Shown here: positions 1,237 through 20,000 of the stretch, in pieces
How positions within the stretch are numbered: position 1 is the stretch's first letter
Layout: each line of letters opens with the position of its first letter
Assembly: GCA_036172245.1 (NCBI GenBank)
Contig: JAYWIR010000057.1
Span: forward strand, 797,681 to 817,680
Direction of reading: 5' to 3'
Source: Raillietiella orientalis
Lineage: Eukaryota
DNA: 20,000 nt
The notes under the pieces: generated by a model
Database searches by the model: none
Told to the model about the DNA's origin: nothing
Seen by the model: only the letters and a program-made list of their open reading frames with translations
Position numbers and translations under genes: made by a program

Positions 1237-1244
1237 GTTGGTAA

Positions 1245-1409: not shown

Positions 1410-1795
1410 TATCTTATATCCCTAAGTCCTTTGAATTGCCAATACAATTTTCTCCAAATTCTAAAAATTGGAGCATTTTTTTGAATAACATTATTTTCCA
1501 GGATATCATTCTGTTGAGCCCATTCAGCTGGAAACTTGAATCCCACTACATGCTTCGCTATTATAGAATGACCAATCAACACATAAGAGCTCATTTCAGT
1601 TTGCTTTTCAGTACTAAACCAAGGACATTTAGGTCGATAATATATCACAGAATCACCCTTAGATGTCACCACAGACTGCTTCTCAACACAACTTCTACAA
1701 TACACAGACACATCTCTTTCTTTAAATTTATAAAAAAAGGAAGTCCTTTTGCTCTGATGCCAAGCTAAATTCTTCATGCATTCACTATACTTCAT
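1406..1795 (-). pseudogene. Putative CRESS virus capsid, C-terminal part
   Basis: 129-aa ORF in AT-rich DNA between the origin hairpin and Rep B, with its stop overlapping the Rep B stop (TTAA 1406-1409). RPKCPWFST and terminal LYWQFKG recall circovirus-type capsid C-termini. No Arg-rich N-terminus, so probably partial. Confidence 0.6.
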
Positions 1796-1826
1796 ATCAA
1801 CAAATTTAACTGCGTAGTTAGGCTGA

Positions 1827-1858
1827 GCGCAATCTGGTCAGTGTTACCCAGATTGCGC
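1827..1858 (+). other. CRESS rolling-circle origin stem-loop with nonanucleotide CAGTGTTAC
   Basis: GCGCAATCTGG (1827-1837) and CCAGATTGCGC (1848-1858) form a perfect 11-bp stem. The loop TCAGTGTTAC contains CAGTGTTAC (1839-1847), a NAGTRTTAC-type nonamer. Confidence 0.88.
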
Positions 1859-2185
1859 AGTTATCTGACCCTCTATTCATCTCGTCCTGCATCACATCTT
1901 GGAGTGACCAAGGTTGAAATTGACGCAGGGAGAGAAGATCTTCGGGACTGATTCCCTAAAATGCAGCCGAAGACTCAACAGATTCTAGCCGCCAATCATT
2001 AAAATTTAATGGGCGGCAGGAAATCCACGAATTGGCTTCCATCATTGAGGCTAGTTGCCTCAAAGGATGGGCAAAATCGTTTTGTGGCGCATGCCCGGCA
2101 CCAAGGAAAGAAGTCCGTCATTGCCGAGACCTCCATAGAAGGATGCGCGAAGGCACATAGAGCAGCGAAGTCGAAAGCTTGGAAC

Positions 2186-2505
2186 AGTGTCAGCATCCTG
2201 AACTGCACTTGCATTCTGATCCGCGCCATCGTCAGGATTCCAGAGGTGGCATCCCGAGGTTGAGCCATCAGGTCTTTCAGGCGGATCCTAGGCGTTTAGC
2301 CCGTTCTTTGGCGGCGTAGGGGGAGTACAAAAGAAAAAACAGGGTTCAGAGGACGGGGGCCACGAAGATGTTACAAATAGCCGCATGTTCCGGCAAGATA
2401 AACTAGCCATTAATTAAGGGGCTAGAGGCCAGCACTGCCTTATGAAGGCAGTCCGACCACGCCTCTTCGGCGCCGAAGTCGCCCAGTGGAACGCCAAGAT
2501 AAGTT
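2186..2505 (-). pseudogene. Decayed Tx1-like ORF2 fragments (post-RT region)
   Basis: YLGVPLGDFGAEEAWSDCLHKA and RIRLKDLMAQPRDATSGILTMARIRMQVQFRMLTL match element S (5325-6005). Contains stops and an internal deletion. Confidence 0.85.
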
Positions 2506-3120
2506 GGCGGCTTTTTTCCCGCTTTTACCGGCGAGCCGACGGTAAGCAGCACTGCTGGCTGGAGATCACGGTCGCCACCGTCCTCCATGGTGCTGCACGA
2601 ATTCGAGTGCTCGTCTCCGGGTAGCGTCGTTTGACGCCCCGGGGTGAGCTTTCGCACCTTCGCGGTCTGCGCTGCGCGCCTCAGGGCCTTAGCCCGGCGC
2701 GCTACGGCTACCGCGCTGGTGATCCGACGTGCGGCGATCTCAGACTCCGTTTCAGAGTGTGATTGAAGCGCGGGAGCTTCGCTTCTCACCTATCGTGTCG
2801 ATTCGGAGGTGCTCGCGGATGGAATCCCGACACTTCCTTTTTCGCGATCACCGGAACATCGTTCCTGACGATCGCAGCTTTCGCGCTATGCGCAACTGCG
2901 GTGGTAGCCTTGGCATCGGCATAGGGAACCTTCGCGCGAGTCTTCATCGCGCTACTGTTTCTTACATTGGAGAGGCTCTTGCAGTTAGGTTGCGGAGAAT
3001 TTTTGGGAGATTTTGTTTTTCTCCCTTTCTACACAACCTTCCACCCTCCGTCCGTTCCCTCGGAGCGCTCCTCGACTTTCGTGAGCAACGCTACCGGGCT
3101 TTCCTCCCCAACCGCCTGGG
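2506..3120 (-). pseudogene. Probable decayed Tx1-like ORF1 C-terminal low-complexity region
   Basis: GC-rich, Ala/Lys/Glu-rich translation containing EGTDGGWKVV*KGRKTK, comparable to EEGWQKVGKKK and ETEWQVATAKKSKK in the ORF1s of Z and U. Confidence 0.5.
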
Positions 3121-3301
3121 GAAAAAAATAAGCAGCCACGCCATCGCAAACAATAACTCAAGTTTTGTCGACTGCTTCAGGTTAATTGTGTGCAGCATAA
3201 TAAATTACACACAGAACGTCAAACACATTTTATTGACTTACTCATATTATGTCAGGTCACAAATTTGAAATAATAACAGCATAAAGAGATCAATAGTTCC
3301 A

Positions 3302-4344
3302 TTACCGCATGGGTTCAGCTGCAGGCAGTATTTTTTCATGTTGCCTTAGCCTGACCGCCCTTGGAAATCTATGCTCAAAGTTACGTATGGCTTCGTGCAA
3401 CTTGGTCCTGATGTCTGCTACACGGTCAGTACCCAGTTGTGGCGTAATCATTTCAATGGGTCTGAACGACAACTCCTTCGGAAATTTCGTGCAGAAGGCT
3501 TCCCATTCAGGCGAGAAATCCTCCTTTGACTCAACAGCCTGTTGCGACATATGGAGCGATCAACAGAGTGTGGACTTAGGGTGTATATTAAGCATGAATG
3601 ACCCAAGCCTTACCAACGTAGCATCTGCATCGTAGTCGTTGAAGTTGGTGCGGGCTTGACCGATGAGATATCTAGCTCCTATATGATAATACTTAGCGTT
3701 TGGCATAGTACTCGCATAGCACACGCCCATGAACACCATATTCTCAGGACAGTTTGCAGCTTGCGCCCAATTGACCAGACGTTTGAATGCCTGGTACGCC
3801 ACTGCATGCCGATGAGTTCCAGCAGGTGGGGACAGGAATCGAAGCAGAGCATCCTGGGATATAGTCACGGGTTTAAATGAGGGTCCTTGGACTGTGAAAG
3901 GCACTGATTCAATCATATGGGCAAATCCTGCCAGCTCCAGCACACGAAGAGTACTGCAAAAGTGACCTAATGTATGGGCCACATCCATCCCCTTCTTTTA
4001 AGATCTTTATCTTGCAAACAAAGAGCGCCAGACTTTTAGAGGATACCCTGCACCTCTAGTGTTATCTTCCCGGATACCGGTGTGATGATTAGTCAGCGAC
4101 CATGACACTTTTGTAGCTATAACTAGGACCATGCAATTCGTCGCTAGTTGCTGATTCAGGGCAGCTTGGCTGGCTGTTCGTTGGGCTGGTGTCAAATCAT
4201 GCCGTTGAGGAGTTGGTCGCCAGTCTCCATCCGGTATTAATACACCATTAATGGACCTATACCGAATCATATCATAGGTTAGCAGAGCATATATGCCGTT
4301 GATCATCAGCGTCAATTGCGCATCTTTGTATTGCTTGGTGCTGT
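3302..4344 (-). pseudogene. Endogenous RNA-virus nucleocapsid/capsid-like gene, tentatively qinvirus-like, 5'-truncated
   Basis: ORFs 4007-4351, 3560-3988 and 3302-3550 share one frame, split only by stops at 4007-4009 and 3560-3562. Intronless and lower in GC than the LINEs. Motifs ATKVSWSLTNHHTG, HTLGHFCST, PAGTH, YHIGARYL and PKSTL are recalled from qinvirus-like segment-2 proteins (unverified). AT-rich trailer at about 3122-3301. Confidence 0.55.
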
Positions 4345-4374
4345 TTATCACCCGGGTGCGCCGGGGCGTTTATT
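4345..4374 (-). repeat. Conserved LINE 3' terminal motif, copy 1 (S)
   Basis: AATAAACGC CCCGG CGCAC CCGGG TGATAA. Confidence 0.9.
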
Positions 4375-6857
4375 ACAAAACTATCCGGGAACAGAGTTCC
4401 CGAACAAGGAATACAGAAAAGACGAAGGAGGGGGGTCCCCGACACGCAGGTCGGTATACAGAAAGTCCGGAACTGGAGGGAGGGAACCACAAATACACAG
4501 ATAAAAAACAGAAATAAAGATATGGGGAAGGTAGGGACAGGGTACTTTGGTACGGCCGTTCCTTCCTTTCAGAACCGCCGATGGATGCCGGCGATCTCTC
4601 TCCTCACGCCCTCTGGTAGATGGGCCCACTCGGCAGCCGACGACATGCTCGCGCTGGCTAATCCGGTGGGCTGACGAAGAATGGCAAGCTTCTCCAACTC
4701 TCGGTGGGCCTTGTCGATGGCGTGGGTGCAACAGACCGTTGCGATGACAGCACCTAACGACAGGCCGCCTGGCATGAAGAAGCGGCTCATCAAGTCTCTC
4801 GCGGTGTCCCCCTGGTGCAGGAGAGCGGAGGACAGCCTCCGCCACAGTCCTAGGAGGGCACCGCAGTCCAGGATCAGGTGCGGGAACGTTTCCACTTCCC
4901 CGCACTGCTTACAGTTTGGGGAGACAACTCCCCCGGAGACACGGTTCGTCCGCTGGCTGGAGTGAAAACCCCAATGCACCAGCATGATGACGTCATGCTT
5001 CCATGAAAGGGGTAACAGAAGTGTTCAAACAGGAGGGAGGGACCACAAGTTCTTCGGGGGCACACTCAAGTGTTCACTCCACCGAAGGAGTCCCTTCGGG
5101 ATGTGGCCAGGCGTGGCGGAGTCTGCTAGCTCGCAAGTCCTCCAGCCGCCAATGTGTCGTGTTGTTCCTGCGATAGTGCGGGCGACCTCCCATCTCGCCG
5201 GTTCGCAGCTGTCATCTCTTGCCCTGAGGGCTGACAGCATGTCGGCGAGGGGCGTGACGGCCAGGCGAGTCCACTTCTGGCTGTTGCACACCTCATCCAC
5301 CGTGCAGTACGGGGAGAGGTGAACCTAACGGAGTTCCAGGAGGGAAACATCTTGGTGCTTTGCCCAGCCATGCAACGGTTCCTGCCACCAAACTTCAAAG
5401 TTCGTTGGGCGACAGGGAATCCATTCCTGGGCTGCCGGGAGCCGGTAGAGGGTTTTCAACGGGAAACCGTCGCTCCTCGTGGCGCGCTCCGTATGCGGCC
5501 GCAGCGACAGAAGTTCATCGCTGCCGGTGCAGCGCCGCAGGAGCAGACGCGCAGGAGCGAACCACGGGGTGGACCAAAGGTTGGCGCACAGGGTCAACAT
5601 CCGAAACTGCACCTGCAGCTCCATTCTCTCCAGCGTCAGGATACCTAAGTTTGCATCCCGACGCGGAGCCGCGAAGTCTTTGAGGCGGATCCTGGACCTC
5701 GCAGGTCCCCACAGAGCGTTCCTCAACAGGCTGTGCGCCTGGAGCTTGGCCGAGTAGGGGGCCGGGCAAACAAAAAGCAGGGGTCGCAAGAGGGGGGCAA
5801 CGAAGGTGTTAAATATCGCGGCCCGCTCCGACAGGAGGAACCTGCTATCGTGAAACGGGCTCAGAGCACTCGTAGCCTTCCGAAGGCAGTCCGACCACTT
5901 CCACTGAGCTGATGTTCTCCAGCAGAACGCCCAGATACTGGATGCAGGAAGCGGTCCGGATCCCCAGGCGGATCCAGTCGGACTGCCCCTCTCACGCCGC
6001 ACCAATACGAACGACCACGCTCTTGCTCCGGTTTACGCTCATACCCGCTCCCCTGCGAATCAGCTCGAAGAAATTATCGAGACTGGACGCCGGGGTGGTC
6101 ATGGGTAAAAGGAGAAGCAGGTCGTCGGCATAGACCGCCACGGCCGGAGTTCCCGGACAGGAGCTCGGCAGGTTGGCCAGAGTCAGCCTGTACGCCCTCA
6201 GCACCAACTCAAAGAAGATGCTGAAGAGCAGGGCGCTTAAGCTGTCTCCCTGCCTGATACCCCGCCCTATGGGAACGCCGTACACGTGGCGCCCGCTGAA
6301 AGAGATATAGCATAGCGCGTGGCGCCTGCAGGAGCGCAAGTAGGCGATGAGGTGCGTCGGGTGACCTAGGCGTTCCAGAATCTCCAGAAGGAGATCCTGG
6401 TTTACGCTGTCGAGCACTTTGCAGAGATCGACGGCGACCGTTAAGGCACCCGGCGTTCCATCGTGCCCTGAACACCGCCGCTTACCTTTGGCAGTGGCGA
6501 TTTCGGCTGCCTGGCTCTGCTGCGCCACGCGCTGCTGCAACTCGAACCATGTTCGCGCGAGGAAGAGATTCGCGTCCATGCACCGCCCCGTCTGCTCCGG
6601 ACTTACCAAGGACTCCGCGATTCTCCCCAGCCGCGCGACCCATAGCTTCGAGAAGAACTTGACGTCCGAAGTCACTAAGGTGATCGGACGCCAGTTGCTG
6701 AGGTGGCGGAAATCCCAGCCTTTCGGCAGGAGCCGCACCTTTGCTTAGCGGAAAGAAGCGGCAACATATCCCGTCTCCCGCATCAGCGAGGAAAGACTCA
6801 GCACCAGGGGGACGAGCTCCGACGCGAAGCACTGAAAGAACTCCGCGGGCAGGCCAT
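4345..6857 (-). mobile_element. Tx1/L1-type LINE segment S (subfamily 1): RT, C-terminal zinc finger, 3' UTR; decayed
   Basis: GLPAEFF, NWRPITL, GIRQGDSLS, YADD, CKQC...HLILDC. Several frameshifts and deletions (YAVP lost). 3' terminal motif at 4345-4374. Confidence 0.93.
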
Positions 6858-6858
6858 A

Positions 6859-7243
6859 CGTGCACAGCTGGCCAACGAGATGTGCGCTGCCATGAACGCG
6901 CGCAACTTGTTGGCCGGTGACGCCGGGAAAAATACGAGGATCGACCACATGTTCCTCGACAACCACCTGTGTTCGTGGGTGGGAAATCGAGGCGCAGTGC
7001 CATTCGAACTTGCCGACCATCCCCGGCTTGTGCTAGAGATACACCCGCGCGGTAGAGGTACACCCTCCACAGCGTGTCGTTTGCCAGGGGACTGGTTGCG
7101 CCTCGCAAGAGCAGCGCAACATCTTCGCTCGTTCCTGCAAGGCTTCCATCTGCAGTTGCTCGCGGACTGGGACGACTTCAAGAGCTCAGTCCGCGAGTTC
7201 TGCGACCAGTTTCCCCTAAACCGTCTCCCTCCAGGTTTCGGTG
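6859..7243 (+). mobile_element. Segment T: C-terminal half of a LINE AP endonuclease, inverted relative to its neighbours
   Basis: LANEMCAAMNARNLL...IDHMFLD...LADHPRLVL...LPPGFGV, closely similar to Z at 16440-16822. Confidence 0.9.
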
Positions 7244-7274
7244 TTGCCACCCGTGTACGCCCGGGGCGTTTATT
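7244..7274 (-). repeat. Conserved LINE 3' terminal motif, copy 2 (X)
   Basis: AATAAACGC CCCGGG CGTA CACGGG TGGCAA. Confidence 0.88.
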
Positions 7275-10200
7275 GAAAACTACAAAAACATTAAACTAGG
7301 CCCCACTAACGGCCGCACAGCACCGAACCTGGCGGAACGCCGGGACGGAGCCCGGCATGACGCTCCTCGGCAGTGGAGGGGGATGGGGAATAAAACAAAA
7401 ATAAAAATAAAGATATAGAAAACCAAAAAGAGTTTGGAGGGAGGGGAAGGGATCATTGTCCACTAGGAGGAGGGCCCATCCTTCGCAGGATGCCCTCCAG
7501 GTCCATCTTCATGCTTCCCAGATGGGGCCATCTCGCAGCTCTCCGCATGAAGCAGACCGCATACGGGATGACTACCCTCTCGTTGGCATCCACTGCGTCG
7601 CGAATGTCGCTCCACGCCGACACGATGCCTCGGATGCAGCAGAGGTCCCCGAGGGCTGCGGCGGGCTGCAGGGCGTCCCGCACGAAGAGGGGCCGAAGAA
7701 CGTCTCTGGGCGTGCTGCCCATTGGGAGCCCGAGTGTCGTCCCGAACCGTTCCCTCAGGGTTCGGAAAGCAGCACAGTCAACTAGTAGGTGGGAGAGCGA
7801 TTCCCGCTCCCCACACCTGGCCCACTCAGGGCTTACACTTCCTCGCGTGCAGTGGAAGCGGCGCGCGTTGCAGGGTATACCCCAGTGCAACAGCAGCAGC
7901 GCCGTCTCTTGCCACTTTAGAGGGAGAAAACTGGATCCGATGAGAATTGGGGGCCACTTGAGGTCATCCGTCGGGATGCCGAGCAGCTCGCCCCATCTCA
8001 GAAGTCCACGTGGGAGGGCACTAGGGGTCGTGGCGTCTGCCAGTTCTCCCATGGTCCAGCCGCTCATCTTTTTTCCCTTCCTGCGATTCAGCAGGAGACT
8101 TGCCACTTTGGCGTCCGGCCGCTGGTTAAGGCCCTCCGTAGGAAGGGCAGCGTCGAAGCCAAAGGGGTGGTCTCCGCCCACGTGCTCCTGGCGGGACACT
8201 CCAGAGTAGTCCGTAGGGTGCAGCAGGCGTTGGGGACGAGTCGCAGGCGGTTCCATTCACGTCCAGTCTGAAGGTTCAGCTTGGCACACGTGCCAACGGA
8301 TTCCTCCAGCCAGGCGGAGGAGTTGGCGGGGCTGCATACCGTCGAGCCGTTCTCTCTCACCAGGGATTCCATGCGCCCAAGGTGAAGGCCGCATTTTCTG
8401 AACTTCCGGCCGTGGCACAGAAGGTATGACGCGAGTCCTTGCGTCCTGGATACACGGCTGGCGAGGATGCGGGCTGGAAAGCACCAAGAGGTGCTTCATG
8501 TATTTGCTGCGATGGCGAGGGTGCGCCATTGCAGCTGTATGTGCAGGCGTTCCAGCGTCAAAGGGCCGAGACCGCCGTCCCGACGTGGAGCGCATAAGTC
8601 CTTTAGAGGCACACGTGGCCTCCCCATGCCCCAGAGGGCGATGCGGAGAAGGGCTTTCGTCCTCTTTTTCAACTCAGGGGAGACGGGGCACACAAAAAGC
8701 AGGGGGCGGAGGATGGTAGCCGCGAACGCGTTCCACACTGCGGCCCTTTCCGGCAGAAAGAACTTGCCTTCTAGGAACGGTCCGATTTCCAACTCTACCT
8801 TTTGGAGACGACCTGACCTGGCTTCTGCGAGGCAGAAGTCCCCCAACGGAACACCCAGGTACTTCAGGTACCTGGCCGTGGGAATCCCCATGCGGATCCA
8901 GTCAGGCCGTCGAGCCTACGTCGCACCCACCGGTACCACCGACGACTTCGCCTTGTTAACCTGCAATCCAGTCCCACGGCTTAGCAGATCGTAGAAATCC
9001 TCGACTGCGGTTGCCGGGGAGGACATGGGCAACATCAGCAGAAGATCGTCGGCGTATGCAGCTACTGCGGGCGTGCCAAGGCACCAGCTTGGTAAGGCAG
9101 CCAAAGTCACCCTGTACGCTCTCAGCACCAACTCAAAGTAGGTGCTGAAGAGCTGGGGACTGAGGCTATCGCCCTGCCGTATGCCCCGCCGCACCGGCAT
9201 GCCGTACACCTGTTGGCTGGAAAAGCAGATGTTAACAATGGCGTGGCGCCAGTAGGAGCGCAGGAAGGAGAGAAGGGAGGGTGGGAAGCCCATGCGACCC
9301 AGGAGCTCCAACAGTAGCTCCTGGTCAACGCAGTCGAACGCCTTATGGAGATCGACCGCGATCGCTAGGGCCCCCTTCCCAGCCCGGGTGTCCATTCCCA
9401 GCCCAGCTGGCGGCCCCAAAGTGGGGTTGCCAATCTTTCCGCCAGTGTCGTTTAGGCAGCGCTGCACATGGAACCATGTGCTCGCGAAGAACAGGTTGGC
9501 ATCCATACTTCTCCCGGGAACAGCGTATGTCTGCTCCGGGCTAATTATGGAGTCTGCCACCTGTCCTAGACGCGAAGCCCACAGTCCAGCGACCAGCTTG
9601 GCGTCCGTATTCACAATTGTGATCGGACGCCAGTTGCCTAGGGATCTCAGGTCTCCTCCCTTCGGGAGGAGCCTCACACGGGCTGACCGAAACGAGGCGG
9701 GAACGTCGCCTTCGTCTCGGATCAGCGCGGTCAACTGGAGCACCAGGGGGGCCAGCTCTGCTGCGAAGCATTGAAAAAATTCCGCAGGCAGGCCGTCCTT
9801 CCCTGGAGCCTTACGCCTCTTGAGCCTTTTAATACCGGCGAGAATTTCACCGGTAGAAAAAGGCTCGTTGAGGCTGTTCCTGTCCTCCTCCCCTATTGCC
9901 GGGGCTCCGTCCGGAAGCAGGAGCCGCGATGCGTCTCGCTCTGGGGGTGCCCTAGCGTAGAGGGAGGAATAGTAATGCCGCACGAGGCGCCTGATCGCGG
10001 GTGGGCCCGATCGCTCCCGGCCTTGGTCGTCCAGCAAGCTGGTCGACCCGGATTGCCAGGCTTGGCGCTGGGCTCCGGCTCGATATTCGGCCAGGCGACG
10101 GACATTGGGGGTCCTCTCGTACCGGCGGGCCTGTAAATAGGCCGTTTGGTTCCGAACCCCCTCCCCAAATCCGGGGGGCAGGCGGTGCAGGGGAACTCCT

Positions 10201-10584
10201 CGCAGAACTCGCGGACCGAGTCCTCTAAGAGGTCCCAATCTATGAGACTGCGGAGGGTGACGCCTCTCAGGAATTTGCGAAGGTGTTCCTGCGCACCTGA
10301 GAGCCGCGTCCAGTCCCCAGGGAGCCGCCTCGCCCTGGACGGGGGTCCTTTGTCGCGCGGGCAAACTTCGGCGATTATCCTGGAATGGTCCGACAGCGTC
10401 GACCCAAGTTTCCCCCGTTTGCCAACCCGTGAGCACAGGTGGGCATCCAGGATGAAGTGGTCGATGCTGCGGTCCATTCCCTCCGCGTCTGCCAACAAGT
10501 TCCGCGTGCGCATGGCAGCGCACAACTCGTTGACCGTGCGTTCTTGTGCTTCGGGCTCACCTGACAGCAGACGGAGATTAAAGT
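7244..10584 (-). mobile_element. LINE segment X (subfamily 2): endonuclease C-half, RT, zinc finger, 3' UTR
   Basis: FNLRLL...IDHF...SDH, APGKDGLPAEFF, NWRPIT, DLHKAFD, GIRQGDSLSP, YADD, KYLGV. Premature TAG at 8916-8918 and several frameshifts. Stop at 7453. 3' motif at 7244-7274. Confidence 0.95.
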
Positions 10585-10614
10585 TTATCACCCGGTCACG
10601 CCGGGGCGTTTATT
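10585..10614 (-). repeat. Conserved LINE 3' terminal motif, copy 3 (Y)
   Basis: AATAAACGC CCCGG CGTGA CCGGG TGATAA. Confidence 0.9.
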
Positions 10615-11460
10615 AATAATAAACTGGTCAGGGACAATGTCTCGAACCAACGACAGAACGACAGGGAACATAGACAAATTACCGGCACGCAGGCCTGGTA
10701 AACAAACCGCTCGCAACGTGGAAGGAACGAGGGGAAAACAAAAAAAAATCAAAAACTGGAGGGAAGGGTAACGGGTTTTTGGTTAGGCTCCGTACTCACG
10801 GGGATTTAAACGATGAGCACCTGAAATGTTCCGGAGCCTATGGGGACGCGGGTGTAAAAGGAAAATACAAAATTAGTTTATGGAGGGTAGGGCAATGATC
10901 ACCGGGTTGGCCGCTGCTGAGCGTGTGTAAACCGGCGGTGTGTTGCGGCGAGATTCCTTTTTGACTCCTCTGTCAAATGAGGCCATCTAGCGGATGCACC
11001 CATGTAAAAGGATGCTTTACTGATTACCTCTTGGTGCTGTCCGTTGATTACCAACGCCTGGCGGACGGAAACTATCGCGCGTATGCAACCGATGGTTGCA
11101 ATCCTTGCGCTTAGGGACAGCCGCTCGGCGTGAAGAATCGTCGCAGCAAGTCTCTTGCGGTGTCCACGGGATGCAATAGTGCTGTTGACAGCCTACGCCA
11201 TAGTCCTTGTAGGACACCGCAGTCCAGAAGTAGGTGCGGGATCGACTCCGTCGACCCGCACGGAACGCAGTTGGCAGATGCAAGTCCCCCGGAGTCTCGA
11301 TGCCAACGCTCGTTACACTGAAAACCCCAGTGAACGAAAAGCAGCACAGCTTGTTTCCAAGCAAGGGGGAGCAGCGAACTGTCAACACACTGTGGAGGGA
11401 CTACAAGTTCTTCGGGGATGACAGCAAGTTCTTCTGCCCACCGGAGGAGTCCCTTTAAGT
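10585..11460 (-). mobile_element. LINE segment Y (subfamily 1-like): ORF2 C-terminus and 3' UTR
   Basis: KGLLRWAEEL...LPLAWKQ...HWGFQC...CVPC...HLLLDC, similar to the S tail. Premature stop at 11111. 3' motif at 10585-10614. Confidence 0.9.
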
Positions 11461-11570
11461 ACAACGAGGAGTGGCGGCGTCCGCCAAATCACTCGTCTTC
11501 CAGGCGCCAAGGAGTTTTCTCGCGAGTGTTTTCAGGGTTTTTAGGTGTGAGCGGTTGTTCCTGGGCAGAG

Positions 11571-14500
11571 TTGCCCGAGGACGCCGCAAAGACGGCGGTG
11601 GGGGGCGAGCGCGCCTCGTCCCCCCAGCCCATGGATGTGGGGGCGTTCTCCCCCACGGAATCGTCCCCCGGCCCGGCGAGGGCTTGGAGCGCGGTGGTGG
11701 CGGCGCCTGCGCCGCCCCCCGCAGAGGAACAGCGGGCGTATATGGCCGACGGCTACAACCCGGCCCTACTTTATAAGGTAGGTGGCCTATACTCCCCCGC
11801 GGTCTTGCGGTCCTTCGCCGCGGAGTTTAAAAAGCTAAAAGTCCCGGAGGAAGAAGTCCTCGGGCTTTCGGTTAGAAGTGGCGGGCAGCTTGTTGAGCTG
11901 AACTGCAAGTCTGCAGGGATGGCTCAGCAGCTGCTCCGCCTGCCGGTGACCGTGAACGGTCGAAGAATCTTCCCGTTCACGGCGCACAATTCCATCGTTG
12001 TCCATCTCACCGGAATTACCATGCGAATGGCAAAGACCGCCGTTCGCGAGAGTCTGGAAAAGTTCGGGACGGTCCACGCGTTGTGGGCAAAACCCAATGT
12101 CCTGGGTTACACCAGGGCATTCAGTGGTTACACCGCTGCCCGCGTGACCGTCCGAGCCGAGGGTGGGCTACCCCACAGACTGCAGGTCGGGGAGGAGGAG
12201 ATCGACCTGTGGTATGTGGGGAAACCCGTTTACTGCGGCTTTTGCCAGGTGTCGGGGCACCTGAAGAAAAAGTGCCCCAACATCGTGTGCTTAGGCTGCG
12301 GTGGGAAGGGGCACATCAGGCGGATGTGCCCCAACAGGAAAAGGTCCGGTCCCGTTGGCGCAAGGAAGGAAGAGACGCCGAGGGAAGAGGACAAGGGCCA
12401 GGAAATGGCCGAATCCCGCCCGGCCAACCAACCCGATGCTCAGCCATCCTGCAGCACAGAACCTGCTGGAGAGAACGCCGAGAACGAGGAAGGTTGGCAA
12501 AAGGTAGGGAAGAAAAAGCCCCAGAAGAAGGAGGCAAAAAAGGTAAACAAGGCGGCGCCGAAAAAGCAGAAACCGGTCGTCCGCGCTTGTACGGTGAAAA
12601 TCGAACGCATCTCGATCTCCAGAGCCGTAAAGAAAGTAACGGTAAAGGCGATCGATACCGTCGATCCTGAGCCGGTTGTGCCCGCAGTGACGTCACCTGA
12701 GTGCCATTTCGCGCAGTGCCTACTGCCGGATGGTGCTCCTGCGCTCGGGGAGGAAGTTTGTTCCAGATTGTCAGGACCCTTTACGATCACAGAGATCATC
12801 TCCGCCATCAGTAAATTAAAAGCAAGGAAGGCACCAGGGGAGGACGGCCTGCCCGCGGAGTTTTACAAATACTTCGCGCCAGAGCTGCCCCCCCTGGTGC
12901 TCAGGTTAAGTCAGCTGATCCGCGAACACGACGAAGTTCCCGCCTCGTTCCGGTCAGCAAAAGTACGTCTCCTGCCGAAGTCAGGAGACCTACGCAACAT
13001 TGGCAACTGGCGTCCCATCACAGTAGTGAATGCGGACGCAAAGTTGTATGCCAAGTTGTGGGCTGAGCGTTTGGGGCGAGTGGCCGCTTCCGTGGTGAGT
13101 CCCGAGCAGACCTACGCTGTTCCCGGACGAACCATGGAGGCCAACCTGCTCCTCGCCAGCTCATGGTGGCAGTTGCGACAACGCGTTGCTCAGGATGGTC
13201 AAGGAAGCCTCGCGCTCCCCTCTGACCAAGAAGATCGGATAGAGGGTGGGATGGACTCGGCGGGAGCCCTTGCCGTCGCGGTCGATTTGCACAAAGCATT
13301 CGACTGCGTCGACCAGGATCTCCTTCTGGAGCTCCTGGAACGCATGGGCTTCCCGGCCGTGCTCCAGTCCTACCTGCGCTCCTGCTGGCGCAACGCGTCT
13401 ATTAATATTTGTTTCAGCGGCCGGTACGTGTACGGCGTGCCAGTGCGCCGCGGCATACGGCAGGGTGACAGCCTGAGCCTCTTGCTCTTCAGCATCTACT
13501 TCGAGTTGGTGCTGAAGGCTTACAGGGTAACTCTGGCAACCCTGCCGAGCTCGTGTGCCGGCACGCCTGCCGTGTCGGCCTATGCAGACGATCTTCTGCT
13601 GCTGCTTCCCGGGTCCACCCCGGCGAGTGCGCTCGAGGAATTCTTCGAGTTGCTGCGCCGCGGGACGGGCCTGGAGGTGAACAGGGCGAAGTCGTCCATG
13701 GCTTGTGTTGGCTCGGCGTGGGCTGGACGGTCGGACTGGATCCGCTTGGGGATCCCCACGGGCAGGTGCTTCAAGTACCTTGGCGTTCCGTTGGGTGACA
13801 TCTGCGCAGCAGAAGCCTGGTCCGACCGTCTCCAAAAGGCAGCGTTGGCGATCGGTCCGTTCCAAGAAAGCAAGTTCTACTTGCAGGAACGGGCCGCGGT
13901 GTGGAACGCGTTCGCGGCCCCCCTCCTTCGCCCCCTACTTTTTGTGTGCCCCGCCCCTTATTTTGTCCGAAAAAGAGCAGCGGGCCTCCTGAGGACAGTC
14001 CTTTGGGGCAAAGGGAGGTCCCGTGTGAGACTCAAAGACTTGTGCGCTCCACGTAAGGACGGTGGACTTGGCCTACTTACGCTGGAGCGCATGGAAGTAC
14101 AATTACAGTTCAGAACGCTCGCCCTTGCAGCGGAACTGTGGGACACGCCCTGGTGCGTTCCAGCACGCCTTCTGGCCCAACGTGCCTCTGGATATGGCGG
14201 ACTCTCGTCGTTTCTCTGGGCTTGCGACCGCAGACAAGCGCATTGCGGCTTTCACCTGCGTCGCATGGCCGTTGTGGCTCGGAAGAACGCATGGATCTCC
14301 TGCCTTCCTGGGAACCACTCGGCATGGCTGCACGAGTCAGTCTCCTCTTGGGAAAAGATCCACGTACCGGCAGGTACAAAGAACACTTGCCTGAAAAGGC
14401 ACGCCCGCTGGACGCTGCAGGAAATCGTGCAATCCCACGATCAGTTTCTGTGGGCCTTTATAACCCCCCTTGCTCCAGTGCTGCCCTTTTTAGTAAACGC

Positions 14501-15152
14501 CAGGAACAGCAGAGAGCAGGGAAAATGGACAGTGTCCTGCACCATAGATGGTAGGACACGAAAGATCGAGGCGTGGACATCTCGGCAGCTTACGGACGCT
14601 GCGACGCCGAGTGTCCCGCCTAACTTAATTCGACGCTGGGGCGAGCTACTCGGACTATCTCCGGAGGAGATGAAGTGGCCCCCAGCGTCCTGGAACAGTG
14701 TATCCCTCCCCTTGAAATGGCAGGAGGTGGCGTTGCTGGTTTTACACTGGGGTCTACCCTACAAAGCATGCCTCTCTCACTGCACACGGGGGGCTGTGGA
14801 TGCCAATTGCGACCGGTGCGGAGAAAAAGAGACATTTCCCCACCTTCTTATTGAGTGCAATGCTCTCCACCCTCTCTGGGATCGGCTTGCAACGATCCTA
14901 AACATTCGCGGAGGTGGCCCTAAAGAAATTTTTAGGCGCCTCTTCTTGCATGACGCCTTGTCCCCACCGGCCTCAGTAGCAGTTCTTTGCTGCATCAGAG
15001 GGGTCGTGGCGGCTTGGAACGCCACAAGAAGAAGGCGCCAAGTTAGCGGCAATGCTACATATTGGACCCGCCTCTTTGTGAGGAACATTTGCAGGTGGCG
15101 ACACCTGGTTGAACGACGGACGCAGCTTGTGAAGATCCTGAACAGGATCTAG
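11571..15152 (+). CDS. Uninterrupted chimeric ORF: Z ORF1 N-part (2x CCHC) fused in frame to W reverse transcriptase and zinc finger; no endonuclease
   Basis: The 1244-codon open frame (11418-15152) contains CGFCQVSGHLKKKC, CLGCGGKGHIRRMC, KAPGEDGLPAEFY, DLHKAFD, YADD (13581) and CDRC...HLLIEC. Start uncertain: TTG 11571 (aligns to the U ATG) or ATG 11631. Confidence 0.8.
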   Translation: MPEDAAKTAVGGERASSPQPMDVGAFSPTESSPGPARAWSAVVAAPAPPPAEEQRAYMADGYNPALLYKVGGLYSPAVLRSFAAEFKKLKVPEEEVLGLSVRSGGQLVELNCKSAGMAQQLLRLPVTVNGRRIFPFTAHNSIVVHLTGITMRMAKTAVRESLEKFGTVHALWAKPNVLGYTRAFSGYTAARVTVRAEGGLPHRLQVGEEEIDLWYVGKPVYCGFCQVSGHLKKKCPNIVCLGCGGKGHIRRMCPNRKRSGPVGARKEETPREEDKGQEMAESRPANQPDAQPSCSTEPAGENAENEEGWQKVGKKKPQKKEAKKVNKAAPKKQKPVVRACTVKIERISISRAVKKVTVKAIDTVDPEPVVPAVTSPECHFAQCLLPDGAPALGEEVCSRLSGPFTITEIISAISKLKARKAPGEDGLPAEFYKYFAPELPPLVLRLSQLIREHDEVPASFRSAKVRLLPKSGDLRNIGNWRPITVVNADAKLYAKLWAERLGRVAASVVSPEQTYAVPGRTMEANLLLASSWWQLRQRVAQDGQGSLALPSDQEDRIEGGMDSAGALAVAVDLHKAFDCVDQDLLLELLERMGFPAVLQSYLRSCWRNASINICFSGRYVYGVPVRRGIRQGDSLSLLLFSIYFELVLKAYRVTLATLPSSCAGTPAVSAYADDLLLLLPGSTPASALEEFFELLRRGTGLEVNRAKSSMACVGSAWAGRSDWIRLGIPTGRCFKYLGVPLGDICAAEAWSDRLQKAALAIGPFQESKFYLQERAAVWNAFAAPLLRPLLFVCPAPYFVRKRAAGLLRTVLWGKGRSRVRLKDLCAPRKDGGLGLLTLERMEVQLQFRTLALAAELWDTPWCVPARLLAQRASGYGGLSSFLWACDRRQAHCGFHLRRMAVVARKNAWISCLPGNHSAWLHESVSSWEKIHVPAGTKNTCLKRHARWTLQEIVQSHDQFLWAFITPLAPVLPFLVNARNSREQGKWTVSCTIDGRTRKIEAWTSRQLTDAATPSVPPNLIRRWGELLGLSPEEMKWPPASWNSVSLPLKWQEVALLVLHWGLPYKACLSHCTRGAVDANCDRCGEKETFPHLLIECNALHPLWDRLATILNIRGGGPKEIFRRLFLHDALSPPASVAVLCCIRGVVAAWNATRRRRQVSGNATYWTRLFVRNICRWRHLVERRTQLVKILNRI
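12683..12697 (+). repeat. Target-site duplication of W, left copy
   Basis: CGCAGTGACGTCACC, identical to 15404-15418. Confidence 0.93.
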
Positions 15153-15403
15153 AGGACCTTTCGGCGCGCAATGTGATTCCCCTCCCGCCCCCCCCTATCC
15201 CCCAAACATAAGTGTCCTCCCCAATTTTTACATTTTCTTTTTTGCTTTGTTTTTTATTCCCGTTGCCGCGCGCTTGAAGGACCTCGCCGGTTGAGAACCG
15301 GCAAGAAGCAGGCTGCCTTGTGGTGAACCATCAGGCTCTCCACACGAAAATAACATGTATTTTTATTTTTTCAAATAAACGCCCCGGCATATCCGGGTGA
15401 AAG
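12698..15403 (+). mobile_element. LINE segment W (subfamily 3): 5'-truncated, TSD-flanked insertion with intact RT
   Basis: Begins at PECHFAQCLLPDGAPA (compare X PERDASRLLLPDGAPA). Stop at 15152, C/T-rich 3' UTR, terminal motif at 15374-15402, flanked by a 15-bp direct repeat. Confidence 0.93.
15374..15402 (+). repeat. Conserved LINE 3' terminal motif, copy 4 (W)
   Basis: AATAAACGC CCCGG CATAT CCGGG TGAAA, followed by G and the TSD. Confidence 0.9.
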
Positions 15404-15418
15404 CGCAGTGACGTCACC
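15404..15418 (+). repeat. Target-site duplication of W, right copy
   Basis: CGCAGTGACGTCACC. ORF1 resumes here (AVTSPSADD...FAQAAEELAA, matching U FARAAEELAA). Confidence 0.93.
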
Positions 15419-15965
15419 ATCAGCTGACGACAATGCCGTGCCGGCATTGCCAGCGAAGGACGTCTGCGCGCCGATCGATGAAGCCGCCCCTGTCGCGCCT
15501 GCGCAAAGCGTCGGTGCGGAAAGCGAGGAGGCGGCGCGTATAACGGACGCGACCTTCGCGCAGGCCGCGGAAGAGCTGGCAGCCATGTTACGGCAGCCTG
15601 CCAAGGACGAGAAGAAGGCCTTGAGACGACCGGCAACGGTGAAGGGCCCTTGAAAATTCCGAGTCCGAAACCGAAGCCGGTTGTTCTACTTCCGAAGCCG
15701 TGCCTAAGAGGAAGGCTGGCAAGAAGACCGGTTGCCCGAGACGAGTCATCCCTCAGGTGGAGGAGGCCATGTCCTCGGGCACGGAGGAGGAGGCAATGTG
15801 CGTCGCGCCACGCGGCCCCACTCCGATCCGTGTCTCGGAAGCCAGCCCCATGGAAGTCGCTGTGGACGACGTGCTCCCGTGTGAGCAGCCGACCGTCGTC
15901 ACGGCCGCCAACGAGACGCCTCCCGCAAGGAAGGAGGCCGCCTCCACCCCACAATAAACACACCA

Positions 15966-16822
15966 ATGCGTGGGCTCGGCTCCTGCCGCCGCTTGCGCAT
16001 CATGTGTTGGAACGTCAACGGGTTGCGCGACGACGGTAAGAGGCGAGACGTAGCCGCCATACTGCGAGACTTTGACCTGGTGCTCCTGCAAGAGACGCAC
16101 GTTCTCAAAGCAGAAGAAGTCCAGGAAATCGAAAGAATCGCGGGAGGGCGGCTACTGCGGAGTGACCTTTATGCTTAAGCCAGCCGTCGACAACGCACTG
16201 CGCAGCGTCAGGTTCGACGAGGACGGTCGAGTTGGGCAGCTTGCGTTCAAGTGGTCCGACTCGATCGTTTTCGTGGTGACGAACCTGTACGCTCCGGTGA
16301 GCAGCCACAGGGCCGAGGAACGCACTGCGTTCTTCGAATCCCTGCGGCGAGACTGGTTGGCTGAAGCAAGCGTACGGCGGGCGCACCTCATCGCGGGCGA
16401 CTTCAATCTCCGCCTGCTGGCAGGTGCGCCCAGCAGTCAAGCACGACTGGTCAACGAGTTGTGCGCAGCCATCAACGCGCGCAACTTGTTGGCCGGTGAT
16501 GCCGGGAGAGATCGGAACATCGACCACATGTTCCTCGACAACCACCTGTGCACGCGGGTGGGAACTCGAGGAACGCTCCCGGCACAGCTGTCCGACCATC
16601 CACGGCTCGTGCTCGAGATACATCCACGCGACAAGGGCCCTCCCCTGAAAACGTGGCGCCTGCCAGGGGACTGGTTGCGCCTCGCAGGAGCGGCGGAACA
16701 TCTGCGCGCATTCCTGCGAGGATTCCATCTTGAGACGCTCGCGGACTGGGACGAAATGAAGTGCTCAGTCCGCGAGTTTTGCGACCAGTTTCCCCTGGAA
16801 CGTCTTCCGGCGGGCTTCGGCG
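15966..16822 (+). pseudogene. AP endonuclease domain of Z ORF2
   Basis: WNVNGL, LQETH, NLYAP, AGDFN, IDH, SDH. Frameshift near 16150. Homology ends at LPAGFGV. Confidence 0.93.
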
Positions 16823-16853
16823 TTATCACCCGGGTACGCCCGGGGCGTTTATT
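16823..16853 (-). repeat. Conserved LINE 3' terminal motif, copy 5 (V)
   Basis: AATAAACGC CCCGGG CGTA CCCGGG TGATAA. Confidence 0.9.
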
Positions 16854-18646
16854 AATAAACTCTACATGCGTGGTACAAGGCCCCACCACGGCCGTAAACA
16901 CAGGACCTGTCGGGACACCGGGACGCAGCCCGGCGTGGCACTCCCCGACAGCGAAAGGGGATGAGGGGAAAAACAAAAAGAAAAAAGAAAGAAATAAAAA
17001 AAACAAAAAGAGTTTGGAGGGCAGGGTAGGGATCACTGGTCGCTGTGAGGAGGGCCCATCCTTCCAAGAAAGCCCTCGAGGTCTCTCCGCATATCTCCCA
17101 GCTGGGGCCATCCGGCAGCTCTCCGCAAGAAGCGTTGGGCGTATGGGATGACATCCCTCGCCTGTGGACCCACTCCTTCGTTGTTGGCGTCGCTCCATGC
17201 CGCCACGATGCCACGGACACAGCACAAGGCTGCGATGGCTGCGGCTGGCTGCAGTGCGTCCTTCACGAAGAGGGGCCGAAGAACGTCTCTGGGGGTGCTG
17301 CCCGTAGGGAGCCCGAGGATCGTCCCGAACCGTTCCCAAAGGGGTCGGAGGGCAGCACAATCCACAATAAGGTGGGGAAGCGACTCCCGCTCCCCGCACC
17401 TGGCACACGCAGGATCCACAGCTCCCCTCGTCCAGTGGAAGCGGCGCGCGTTGCAGGGTAGACCCCAGTGCAACAGGAGCAACGCCGACTCTTGCCACTT
17501 GAGGGGCAGGATCCTGGATTCCTTCATCACCGGGGGCCACTTCAGCTCATCCCTGGGGATGGCGAGCAGCTTGCCCCATCTTAATAACCCTCGCGGCTGG
17601 ACGCTCGGGGTCGTGGCGTCGGCCAGTTCTCCTGTTGTCCAGCCGCTAATCAACTTCTCGCGTCCCTCGATGCAGCAGGAGACTTGCCACCTCGGCGTCC
17701 GACTGCTGTGAAGTGCCCTCCTCAGGAAGGGCAGCGCCGTAGCTAGGCAGGTCGTCTCTGCCCACGTGCATCTTGCTGGACTCTCCAGGAGATTCCGCAG
17801 CGTGCAGCGGACGTAGGGGCTGCATCGGAGACGATTCCACGTTTCGTGGCTCCTCTGGTTAACCGCTGCCCACGTTCCAATATTCTCCTCCAGCCAGGCG
17901 GGGGAGTTGGCGGGGCAGCAAACCATCCAGCTGTTCTCCTTGGCCAATGTTGCCATGCGCCCGAGCAGTAGGCCGCATCTTCGCATCTTCCGGCCACGGC
18001 TCAGAAGAAAAGACGCGAGTCCATCGCACCGGGACACACGGCTGGCCAGGAGGCGGGCCGGAGTGCACCAAGGGGTGCTCCACATCTTCGCTGCGATGGC
18101 GAGGGTTCGCCACCGCAGCTGCTTCTCCACGCGCTCCAGCGTCAGGAGGCCAAGACCGCTGTCCCGACGCGGAGCGCACAAGTCCTTCAGAAGGACTCGG
18201 CCCCCCCCCTTGCCCCAAAGGGCGATACGGAGGAGGTCCTTTGTCCTCTTCTTCGATTCCACGGTGGGGGGGCAAACAAAAAGCAAGGGGCGGAGGATGG
18301 GGGCCGCGAAGGCGTTCCAAGCCGCGGCCCGTTCCGGCAAGTGAAACTTGCCTTCCAGGAACGGGCCGATCGCCGTCTCGACTTTTTGGAGGCAGCTGGA
18401 CCACGCTTCCGCAGGGGAGTAGTCCCCCAACGGCACACCAAGGTACTTGAAGCACCTCGCCGTGGGGATCCTCAGACGGACCCAGTCCTGCTGCCCTGCC
18501 CACGCCGCACCTATTGGCACAACCGACGACTTCGCCCTGTTAACCTGCAGTCCGGTCCCGCGGCTGAGCAGATCGAAGAAGTCTCCGACCGCCTTTGCCG
18601 GGGTGGACATTGGCAACAAGAGCAGAAGATCGTCGGCGTACGCTGC
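16823..18646 (-). mobile_element. LINE segment V (subfamily 2): ORF2 from YADD to the 3' end
   Basis: Open frame from AAYADD to the stop at 17033, with KYLGV and CARC...HLIVDC. Tail GRMGPPHSDQ resembles X RRMGPPPSGQ. 3' motif at 16823-16853. Confidence 0.93.
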
Positions 18647-20000
18647 TCGATGTCCGGCCGAACGCCTTGTGCGCTCTAGGGTGGACGTGTTTTCTCGGTG
18701 CTCCTCGTGCCAGGAAGTCTCCCCCAGTGCAAGCGTCGTGTGGTTCGGTGGTCGATCAGGCAGCGATGCCTGACGCGACCACCAGGGATGGCCAGGGGGC
18801 AGCGGAACGCCGCCCTCAGAGGCGATGGAGGTGGGGCATCCGCCCCCACAGAATCGGTCCCCGCTGCAGCGCGGGCGTCGAGCGCCGTTGTGTCAGCGCC
18901 ATCGCCTGCAGCCGCGGCGGAATTGTCGGCCTATGTAGATGAGGGGTGCAACCCCTCATTGTTCTACAAGGTAGGCAATTTATATTCTTTAGAGAGCGCG
19001 CGCGCCTTCTCGAAGGGCATGCGCGCTCTCGATGTGAAAGAGGAGGAGCTCAGTGCTATGACCATCCGCAGCGGGGGTCAGTACGTTGAGGTCATCTGCA
19101 AACATGCAGAGCTGGCCCAACGACTGCTTAAAACCACCGTTGTGATGGGGACGCGCAGGCTTCTCCCCAATACGGCGGACCGCAGCATGGTGGTCCACCT
19201 GTTAGGCGTGACCGCGCGAATGCGCAAAGAACAGGTTCGCGCCGCTTTGGACCAGTTTGGAACGGTCCACGCGCAGTGGACGAAAGTTAGTCCTTTCGAG
19301 GACTACACGGGGCTGCAACACGGCCTCACTGCTGCGCGCGTGACCGTTCGGGAGGGCTGCACTCTTCCCCACAAACTGGTGGTCAAAGGCGAAACCGTCG
19401 ACCTCTGGTATGTGGGGAAGCCGAAATACTGTGGCTTCTGCAATACGTCGGGCCACCTCAAAAAGAGGTGTCCCAATGTGCAGTGCAAAGTATGCGGCAC
19501 AATGGGCCACACGAGGGAGGTGTGCCCAAAAGCAGCAGTGCGGGTGGTTTCCAAGAGAAACCTTAAAAAACGCGCCCGGCTTCTGCAGAAAAGACTGGCG
19601 GCGAAAGCTGCCGCGAAGGCTCTGCCACCCGCGCCCAAGACCCAGGCCGCACCCGCGACCCCGGCGACCAACGCCGAAAAAGTTGAGGGAGCCGAACAGG
19701 AGACTGAGTGGCAAGTGGCAACAGCCAAAAAATCAAAGAAGGAGAGGAGGATGGAAAAGAAAATCGCCTACCAACAGAAGAAGAAAGAGCAGGGTAGCGC
19801 GATAATTAAAGAGTGCAGCGTCGTAGTCGAACGCGTTCTCCATGTTGCTGAACGCTGCCGGAAAGAACTCGCCGCTACCGACGACCTCCCCTCTGTTGAC
19901 ACAGTCAACAGCGAGGGGAGCGAGCCGGCGGCGGCGTCCGTCATCGACACCACCATCGATGACGTAGCCTTCGCGCGAGCCGCGGAGGAGCTGGCAGCCT
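18647..20000 (+). mobile_element. LINE segment U: 5' UTR and ORF1, running off the window end
   Basis: ATG at 18766, two early frameshifts, then open from about 18836 to 20000: YVDEGCNPSLFYKVG...DLWYVGKPKYCGFCNTSGHLKKRC...CKVCGTMGHTREVC, homologous to Z ORF1. Absent from the ORF track because it has no stop. Confidence 0.92.

Follow-up and report, generated by a model that had tools for sequence, protein, structure and literature searches.

The 3' ends of two LINEs of one subfamily (T and Z; T/Z-type) are joined in antisense to the same nucleotide of a sister LINE subfamily (X and V; X/V-type) in the analyzed window, i.e., the whole stretch of 20,000 nucleotides. We consider it somewhat probable that a T/Z-type LINE was primed site-directedly on its sister LINE, in antisense and at one nucleotide, in two separate events (n = 2). 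Two separate retrotransposition events would have joined the T/Z-subfamily 3' end to the first base past the GFG codons in the EN–RT linker of X/V; the 3'-OH on the X/V sense strand at ...TTCGGYG/ (the slash marks the break, here and below) would serve as the primer for copying T/Z RNA into DNA (target-primed reverse transcription); and the site would be selected by the T/Z endonuclease, or through pairing or structure at that spot. On this reading, T/Z would be target-specific, with a sister LINE as its landing place. Alternatively, a fixed terminal sequence may prime at one internal site.

Composition of the LINE Cluster

Positions 4345 to 20000 are occupied by eight LINE fragments abutting one another, with a GC content of 0.55–0.65 in the cluster versus 0.38–0.49 across most of positions 1–4500. 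Predicted domains place the elements among APE-type LINEs of the L1/Tx1 superfamily, with EN, RVT_1, a C-terminal zf-RVT, and ORF1 with CCHC knuckles. Exo_endo_phos is matched by P0002 (E = 7.3e-7) and RVT_1 by P0001 and P0004 (E about 1e-20); P0001 and P0006 show CCHC motifs, and the zf-RVT match lies under the cut-off (18.6 versus 27.5 bits). Comparison of the RT part of P0001 with the protein database yields 55 matches, the best 31% identical, and the nearest are fish L1/Tx1-like proteins; the "Transposon TX1" names of matches are automatic labels, given to plant L1s too. The protein atlas returns generic RVT_1/zf-RVT clusters alone. For the junction-crossing frames (P0002 residues 150–300), the protein database gives 64 candidates, none significant, and the 3'-terminal motif has no match in genome contigs, none in viral contigs, and one in metagenome contigs, a chance match without other similarity to the window. 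The size of the sample speaks against the site reading: n = 2 in a single 20-kb window, external copies not being recovered in protein, metagenome, genome, and viral contig searches.

The leftmost element, A (4345–6856, minus strand), is a LINE of another subfamily with the same 3' terminus, at 4345; it is 5'-truncated in RT, its 3' end adjoins non-LINE DNA (about 45% GC), and its 5' side stands head-to-head with X. X (6862–7243, plus strand), delimited by tblastn of P0002 and alignment to V, is a 5'-truncated X/V-type fragment with the C-terminal part of EN and the linker (V-frame residues 129–256; 0 stops in 127 codons). T (7244–10584, minus strand), a LINE of the T/Z type whose 3' terminus lies at 7244, contains the 3' UTR, zf-RVT, RT, and the C-terminal half of its own EN; it is 5'-truncated near EN residue 108 and decayed (3 stops in the 534 codons read in Z's frame, and frameshifts). 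B (10585–11511, minus strand; right boundary approximate) is a short 5'-truncated LINE with an A-like 3' UTR, its 3' terminus adjoining T's truncated 5' end. C (11512–15402, plus strand; left boundary approximate) has an intact 1272-aa ORF1–RT–zfRVT frame without endonuclease, and its 3' terminus at 15374–15402 adjoins V. V (15403–16822, plus strand), an X/V-type fragment, starts in the ORF1–EN linker right after C's 3' end and includes EN, frameshifted upstream of 16054 (Exo_endo_phos, E = 7.3e-7). Z (16823–18646, minus strand), also a LINE of the T/Z type, has its 3' terminus at 16823 and its stop codon at 17033–17035; its frame is open throughout, and it is 5'-truncated at the YADD box. D (18686–20000, plus strand; left boundary approximate) is the 5' part of a LINE, with ORF1 and a V-like linker, that continues past the window edge; it lies head-to-head with Z's 5' end across about 35 nt of filler. 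The joins in the array comprise three 5'–5' head-to-head joins and two joins of a 3' end to a truncated 5' end. The long open frames noted in the first-pass annotation are confirmed for V (365 aa), Z (619 aa), and X (206 aa), but not for T, which is broken.

Position and Geometry of the Junctions

The X–T junction lies at 7243/7244, where X reads ...CCAGGTTTCGGTG/TTGCCACCCG, and the V–Z junction at 16822/16823, where V reads ...GCGGGCTTCGGCG/TTATCACCCG. Both breaks fall one base past the GFG codons (LPPGFG in X, LPAGFG in V). At each junction, a plus-strand EN-region fragment is followed by a minus-strand 5'-truncated LINE, and both nucleotide and orientation are identical (n = 2, both within one 20-kb window). 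The first-pass annotation had placed the junctions, at about 7243 and 16822, at the same homologous position, and the exact breaks agree with this: the X–T block (6862–9063) and the V–Z block (16441–18647) align across both, unbroken, with 77.9% identity over 2213 columns (X/V, 0.80 in 382 columns; 3' UTR, 0.755 in 212; T/Z coding part, 0.77 in 1614). It had also put the site at the end of the endonuclease domain, which does not hold: the Exo_endo_phos match (Pfam) ends at V-frame residue 182, the GFG residues are 254–256, and the junction is hence about 74 residues beyond the match, within the EN–RT linker. Minus-strand frames spanning both junctions (16437–17546 and 6798–7295) were dismissed as a by-product of wobble positions shared with the EN frame.

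For two unrelated insertions into an element of about 5 kb, a common nucleotide and orientation would be expected by chance in about 1 of 10,000 cases, a reasoned rather than computed estimate. X and V have 7 differences within the 20 bases preceding the junction; a sequence-reading endonuclease must tolerate these, which counts against the site reading.

That the adjacency is an artefact of the assembly, joining LINE fragments, is hardly credible. The cluster is a dense repeat, and the only public run found, X1, contains 0.22 of the sampled words in short contigs, no RNA run being listed; however, the adjacency is present twice, in sequences 22% diverged, and the two sides of the junction have no common words able to mislead an assembler. 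On positions 15300–19000, X1 gives 247 short contigs, 140 of them less than 90% alike, and the depth of 19.4 in the junction bin, with 6 of the 175 loose contig ends listed, does not itself indicate bridging of 16822/16823. Four X1 contigs have C at position 16810, as in X.

The Shared 3' Terminus and the Incoming Element

To the right of each junction lies the reverse complement of the canonical 3' terminus of the family, AATAAACGCCCCGG-loop-CCGGGTGA(T)AA, read on the minus strand as AATAAACGCCCCGGGCGTACACGGGTGGCAA in T (7244–7274) and as AATAAACGCCCCGGGCGTACCCGGGTGATAA in Z (16823–16853). When one mismatch or none is allowed, the terminus core GGGGCGTTTATT is present 5 times in the window versus 0.06 expected, each time about 210–230 nt beyond the stop codon of an RT-bearing element. 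Since this terminus recurs at five element ends with five different flanks (the three besides T/Z having unrelated flanks), the T/Z side of the junctions is a true LINE 3' end; hence, T/Z is the incoming element and X/V the interrupted one. The 3'-terminal hairpin folds in four of the five copies, with z-scores of −1.9 to 0; what defines the terminus is its conserved sequence rather than folding energy. The primer-side ends of the three remaining 3' junctions (GCTGT/, AAAGT/, and TGCGC/) show no common nick consensus, and strict endonuclease specificity is not a trait of the wider family, which counts against the site reading.

Divergence and Protein-Level Constraint

The dN/dS ratio is 0.29 for X/V (127 codons, dS 0.53) and 0.27 for T/Z (531 codons, dS 0.65); off-frame controls give 1.0–2.1, save for two antisense wobble-sharing frames (0.32 for X/V and 0.42 for T/Z). 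None of 500 permutations preserving base and CpG class reaches the observed value for X/V (null mean 0.85, minimum 0.405) or for T/Z (mean 0.89, minimum 0.58). Polarized synonymous/nonsynonymous changes number 11/19 in X, 10/13 in V, 60/75 in T, and 57/61 in Z; all four branches are far from the neutral expectation of about 1:3, and those within each pair are roughly equal. The constraint reaches the junction, the nearest 42 codons holding 9 synonymous and 10 nonsynonymous codon changes. T and Z have no disabling mutations in common (Z is fully open, T has 3 stops), their 5' truncation points are unlike (EN residue 108 and YADD, respectively), and the 3' UTR, with an identity of 0.755, is more conserved than synonymous sites. 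Since X and V, and likewise T and Z, diverged mostly under protein-level constraint, X, V, T, and Z each stem from an active lineage that evolved on its own.

An old DNA-level segmental duplication of a dead composite block, followed by neutral decay, would leave collinear homology of the kind seen here (2.2 kb, with similar identity on either side). It would not leave dN/dS of 0.27–0.29 on both sides, lower than all 500 null permutations, with four constrained branches, no common disabling mutations, and a 3' UTR exceeding synonymous sites in conservation. We regard it as largely refuted and very improbable; it could survive only if gene conversion from active copies had been extensive. The preference of the first-pass annotation, made by eye, for independent events over decay of one duplicated block is thus supported by both ratios, by the permutations, and by all four branches. 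As a sign of such a duplication it had named dN/dS near 1 together with equal divergence on both sides of the junction: the former is not observed, in favor of its reading, while the latter roughly is (dS 0.53 versus 0.65), against it.

About equal dS on both sides is predicted by common descent of the whole composite, and not by independent events. It therefore agrees with a junction made once and then inherited, i.e., a master T/Z element antisense in X/V whose composite was copied onward via read-through or 3' transduction; in one variant, the antisense X/V tail may guide priming by homology to other X/V copies. Homology continuous through the junction, and the absence of the downstream target half beyond T and Z, point the same way. 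However, a transduced antisense tail should be neutral in the EN frame, whereas the X/V ratio of 0.29 is below all 500 permutations and constraint persists in the 42 junction-adjacent codons; the outer ends (X at 6862, V at 15403) are unlike, which leaves the composite without a constant 3' end; and T has its own endonuclease, hence no functional reason for keeping X/V. Judged from these substitution patterns, the inherited junction is weakened by the dN/dS outcome, and we consider it unlikely.

With regard to site-directed priming on the sister LINE, the similar synonymous distances on both sides would suggest that T/Z co-diverged with its X/V target. That T/Z is a dedicated parasite of its sister LINE, which lands antisense at a single nucleotide in the coding sequence of the X/V EN–RT linker and has co-diverged with its target, is a tentative proposal, on the doubtful side of even.

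Candidate Target Subfamily and Target Continuity

X and V are 80% identical, while T's own EN is about 68% identical to X/V (nucleotides); hence, X/V is a subfamily distinct from T's own EN. T carries an uninterrupted copy of the site (10146–10181, minus strand; ...CCCGGATTTGGG/GAGGGGGTTCGG, LPPGFG/EGVRNQ), an empty-site reference from the sister subfamily. This copy is unoccupied and differs in sequence, GGATTTGGG/G versus GGYTTCGGY G/ in X/V. Both T/Z-type 3' ends readable in the window (2/2) are at the same X/V nucleotide, and none of the three 3' ends of other subfamilies is (A adjoins non-LINE DNA; B and C adjoin other LINE positions).

The downstream half of X/V was sought beyond T's 5' end, where B's 3' end is found instead, at 10585, and beyond Z's 5' end, where about 35 nt of filler and then D's 5' end follow; it was found at neither. 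The suggestion of the first-pass annotation that insertion severed the endonuclease of the sister LINE from its RT accordingly lacks support, the downstream half being absent beyond both T and Z. The target does not continue past T or Z, neither a target-site duplication nor a small deletion is seen there, and none of the five elements with a visible 3' end shows continuity of its target; therefore, the array was not built through simple insertions into continuous targets, which counts against the site reading.

Absent continuity in 5/5 elements would also be expected if reverse transcription itself had linked the T/Z 3' end to an X/V template (by end-priming or template switching at one preferred place) and the product had been captured at DNA ends. 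The same process would fit a fixed center with variable outer ends (EN residue 129 for X versus the linker for V; EN residue 108 for T versus YADD for Z), the three 5'–5' and two 3'-to-truncated-5' joins, as template jumps or free-end priming would give, and the presence in the array of C, intact yet endonuclease-less. It is nevertheless quite unlikely: no complementarity between the T/Z 3' region and X/V is common to both copies, no direct precedent was found, and n = 2. A 10–12-nt complementary match in X/T is missing from V/Z and was dismissed as chance.

A bolder variant of the parasite proposal is that priming would take place on X/V nucleic acid, away from any continuous target in the chromosome, which would account for the fixed center, for outer ends that vary, and for the absence of the target halves. 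More generally, the intact, endonuclease-less C in the array and the absence of target continuity at all junctions hint that such arrays may grow by end-priming rather than nick-priming.

Comparison With Known Systems

Target-specific LINEs have been described in rRNA and snRNA genes, in microsatellites, and in a small number of DNA or LTR transposons. If the site-directed reading is true, the use of sister-LINE coding sequence as a landing site would constitute LINE-on-LINE parasitism, and could account for the growth of LINE-only clusters, e.g., Zepp-type arrays, which have been proposed as the centromeres of some algae. The reused site GGYTTCGGYG/ would offer a concrete substrate for endonuclease or priming specificity.

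Adjacent inverted LINE segments are also a product of L1 twin priming (5' inversion), in which the inverted piece is on the 5' side and the 3' end adjoins the target. In the window, by contrast, it is the antisense partner that adjoins the 3' end, and this partner is of a different subfamily (68% versus 80% identity). Twin priming or simple inversion of one element was rejected on geometry, as T has its own EN half and extends beyond the site.

According to PMC4494074, where target-specific LINEs are defined by more than 20% of flanks being the same target, Tx1-group LINEs target other TEs: Tx1L is found in the piggyBac element Tx1D, Tx1-Mar in Mariner-N4_AMi, and Tx1-8_Crp and Tx1-4_AMi in LTR retrotransposons. 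T/Z resembles these (PMC4494074) in being an APE-type, L1/Tx1-like LINE whose copies share position and orientation within another TE. Unlike them, it would target coding sequence, that of a sister LINE in the same family cluster (2/2 copies), and neither a target-site duplication nor the downstream target half is seen. As in R1/R2-type LINEs, the 3' junction of T/Z is precise and recurs at a single nucleotide of a multicopy target, rRNA genes there and a candidate LINE here. Priming helped by target-derived RNA is mentioned for R1/R2-type LINEs (PMC4494074), whereas T/Z RNA is not seen to carry target-derived 3' sequence.

In layout, the window resembles the Zepp-like clusters of green algae, as it contains dense abutting 5'-truncated LINEs that are GC-rich relative to their flank. 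The passages on Zepp and ZeppL describe L1-type LINEs richer in GC than the genome around them, in clusters of mostly 5'-truncated fragments, with Zepp targeting existing Zepp copies (PMC8226300; PMC3446292), and in the window LINEs of about 60% GC likewise lie next to DNA of about 40–48% GC. Zepp arrays are described in those passages as nested or tandem, with no mention of a fixed landing nucleotide, whereas in the window orientations alternate and one exact site is reused.

Organization of the LINE array

LINE fragments are piled without a gap from ~4345 to the end of the window, with GC content of ~60%; in the DNA to the left of the pile it is ~40–48%. Four components make up the family: an ORF1 carrying a pair of CCHC knuckles, an endonuclease (EN) of the APE type, matching Exo_endo_phos of Pfam (E = 7.3e-7), an RVT_1 reverse transcriptase (RT), and a weak zf-RVT tail. 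The closest proteins in a collection of 5.8 billion are fish L1/Tx1-like, with identity of at most 31%. From left to right, the array comprises A (4345–6856, minus strand), from another subfamily and 5'-truncated within the RT; X (6862–7243, plus), a fragment of the endonuclease/linker; T (7244–10584, minus), extending from its 3' end via the RT to half of an endonuclease of its own; B (10585–~11511, minus), a short 5'-truncated copy; C (about 11512–15402, plus), with an intact frame of 1272 aa; V (15403–16822, plus), formed by linker and endonuclease; Z (16823–18646, minus), with a fully open frame, truncated at YADD; and D (plus), with ORF1 and linker, which starts at about 18686 and continues to the right edge of the window. 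X and V belong to one subfamily, T and Z to its sister. Sampled window words are found in one public run at a fraction of 0.22, as short contigs, and related copies are present there.

In element C, the ORF1 with its two CCHC knuckles is fused straight to the RT and zf-RVT; the endonuclease and ~75 residues past GFG are missing, and residue 455 of its protein frame (P0001) aligns with residue 205 of T. C is a LINE without an endonuclease whose frame nonetheless has a coding appearance. An old RT C-terminal fragment (1881–2501, minus) lies outside the main cluster and is 31% identical to P0001; its part 2174–2501 matches 5576–5937, 13776–13943, and 18274–18445 at 67–74% identity. Further left, in DNA of ~40% GC, two adjoining open frames occupy 291–1306 (minus). 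The frame 884–1306 matches Viral_Rep of Pfam (PF02407; E = 7.2e-6, barely over the cut-off), and hence has the look of a replication-protein fragment endogenised from a small circular ssDNA virus; for the neighbouring frame, 294–884 (minus), Pfam gives no match.

The conserved 3' end, AATAAACGCCCCGG-loop-CCGGGTGA(T/A)AA, terminates five elements in the window, four of them minus-strand (4345, 7244, 10585, and 16823) and one plus-strand (15374–15402), in all five cases ~210–230 nt beyond the stop codon of the RT-bearing frame. Its core 12-mer occurs five times in the window, with 0.06 expected; a short hairpin is predicted in four of the five copies, with unremarkable z-scores. Among metagenome, prokaryote-genome, and viral contigs, the terminal motif yielded one chance match only. 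The five flanks are mutually unrelated: non-LINE DNA for A, X for T, the truncated 5' end of T for B, the linker of V for C, and V for Z.

The two antisense junctions

X ends at 7243 and V at 16822, both one base beyond the LPxGFG codons (GFG+1), and the reverse complement of the T or Z 3' terminus begins immediately after. The same antisense junction, formed twice according to the first-pass annotation, is thereby confirmed at 7243|7244 and 16822|16823; its site, however, is not the end of the endonuclease domain, as had been claimed, but lies ~74 residues beyond the Pfam endonuclease match, within the EN–RT linker. Since T and Z end canonically, X/V is the interrupted sequence. Over 2213 alignment columns, segments 6862–9063 and 16441–18647 are collinear and 77.9% identical (0.80 in X/V, 0.755 in the 3' UTR, and 0.77 in T/Z coding sequence). 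T's own copy of the site is uninterrupted (LPPGFG|EGVRNQ, ...GGATTTGGG|GAGGGG); this is a sister-subfamily sequence, its endonuclease being ~68% identical to X/V. The putative specificity is based on two of two T/Z copies (n = 2), both in one window. By our reasoning rather than by computation, chance reuse of the same nucleotide and orientation in a ~5-kb element would occur about once in 10,000 cases.

X (7159–7197) and V (16738–16776) both contain, 46 nt upstream of the junction, an inverted repeat with perfect 11-nt arms, CTCGCGGACTG / CAGTCCGCGAG, and a loop of 17 nt, conserved in surroundings that are 20% diverged; the endonuclease of T has not preserved the first arm. The repeat might mark the landing site structurally, or simply reflect coding constraint. 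Open frames on the T/Z strand extend over both junctions into antisense X/V (16437–17546 and 6798–7295, minus); their wobble positions coincide with those of the endonuclease frame, and GC-rich coding sequence probably gives rise to them as a side effect. A protein database search revealed no junction-crossing frames.

Codon-level constraint

For X and V in the endonuclease frame, dN/dS is 0.29 (127 codons; dS 0.53, dN 0.156), and for T and Z in the RT frame it is 0.27 (531 codons; dS 0.65, dN 0.178). Off-frame controls give 1.0–2.1, except for two wobble-sharing antisense frames (0.32 for X/V and 0.42 for T/Z). As a null for GC-rich third positions, we shuffled the observed differences among sites of equal base and CpG class; none of 500 shuffles was as low as the observed value, either for X/V (mean 0.85, minimum 0.405) or for T/Z (mean 0.89, minimum 0.58). 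With X/V polarised against T's endonuclease and T/Z against element C as outgroups, synonymous/nonsynonymous changes are 11/19 in X, 10/13 in V, 60/75 in T, and 57/61 in Z; hence, constraint is present on all four branches, whose lengths are alike within each pair. The signal is still there in the 42 X/V codons adjoining the junction (codon changes: 9 synonymous, 10 nonsynonymous). All four pieces are from lineages that evolved as working elements during most of their separation.

T and Z have no stops in common (none in Z, three in T, in 534 codons), and their truncation points differ. Given these features, the low dN/dS, and the four constrained branches, we reject the duplication of an already dead block with subsequent decay of its copies; a neutral segmental duplication is largely refuted and very improbable. 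The first-pass preference for independent events over decay of one duplicated block thus stands as far as dN/dS is concerned, which is not near 1, although equal divergence on both sides of the junction roughly holds.

Proposed site-directed landing and its alternatives

On balance, we favour independent formation of the two junctions, two separate priming events being the simplest reading. In each event, a 3'-OH at ...TTCGGYG|, in the sense strand of an X/V-type sequence, would prime reverse transcription of T/Z RNA, the outcome being a site-directed landing of T/Z on a sister LINE. X/V bases past GFG+1, if complementary to ...GGGTGATAA, would support priming by pairing. Several observations speak against targeted insertion of the textbook kind: in the window, neither T nor Z is followed, past its 5' end, by the downstream half of X/V; of the five elements whose 3' end is visible, not one shows target continuity; the three 3' junctions other than those of T and Z have no nick consensus in common; and the synonymous distance is approximately equal on the X/V and T/Z sides. 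The latter would be accounted for if a transduced antisense X/V flank had been inherited together with T/Z; however, such a composite, which we consider unlikely, explains neither why X/V is constrained at the codon level nor why the outer ends of X and V differ.

Three junctions are head-to-head (5'–5'), A.X (6856–6862), B.C (about 11512), and Z.D (18647–18686), with a 5'-truncated minus-strand LINE running up against the 5' end of a plus-strand one in each; in two more, B onto T and C onto V, a 3' end abuts a truncated 5' end. The homologous starts of C and D (GTTTTCTCG...) suggest that both carry full-length 5' ends. Overall, the geometry is more like that of paired priming, or of priming on free DNA ends, than that of nested insertion. 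If priming or template switching had made the join where no continuous target existed, a fixed centre with variable ends would result, as seen here, but no complementarity common to both copies was found in its support, and we regard this origin as quite doubtful.

Comparison with known systems

A narrow literature search yielded no description of a LINE whose landing site is fixed within coding sequence of another LINE. Tx1-group LINEs target other transposons, e.g., piggyBac Tx1D, Mariner-N4_AMi, and some LTR elements (PMC4494074); Zepp LINEs use existing Zepp copies as targets, resulting in GC-rich clusters (PMC8226300 and PMC3446292). By analogy with both, T/Z in this window would be a LINE landing in transposable elements; unlike them, it reuses one exact nucleotide of a sister LINE coding sequence, in antisense, and the likeness is one of behaviour.
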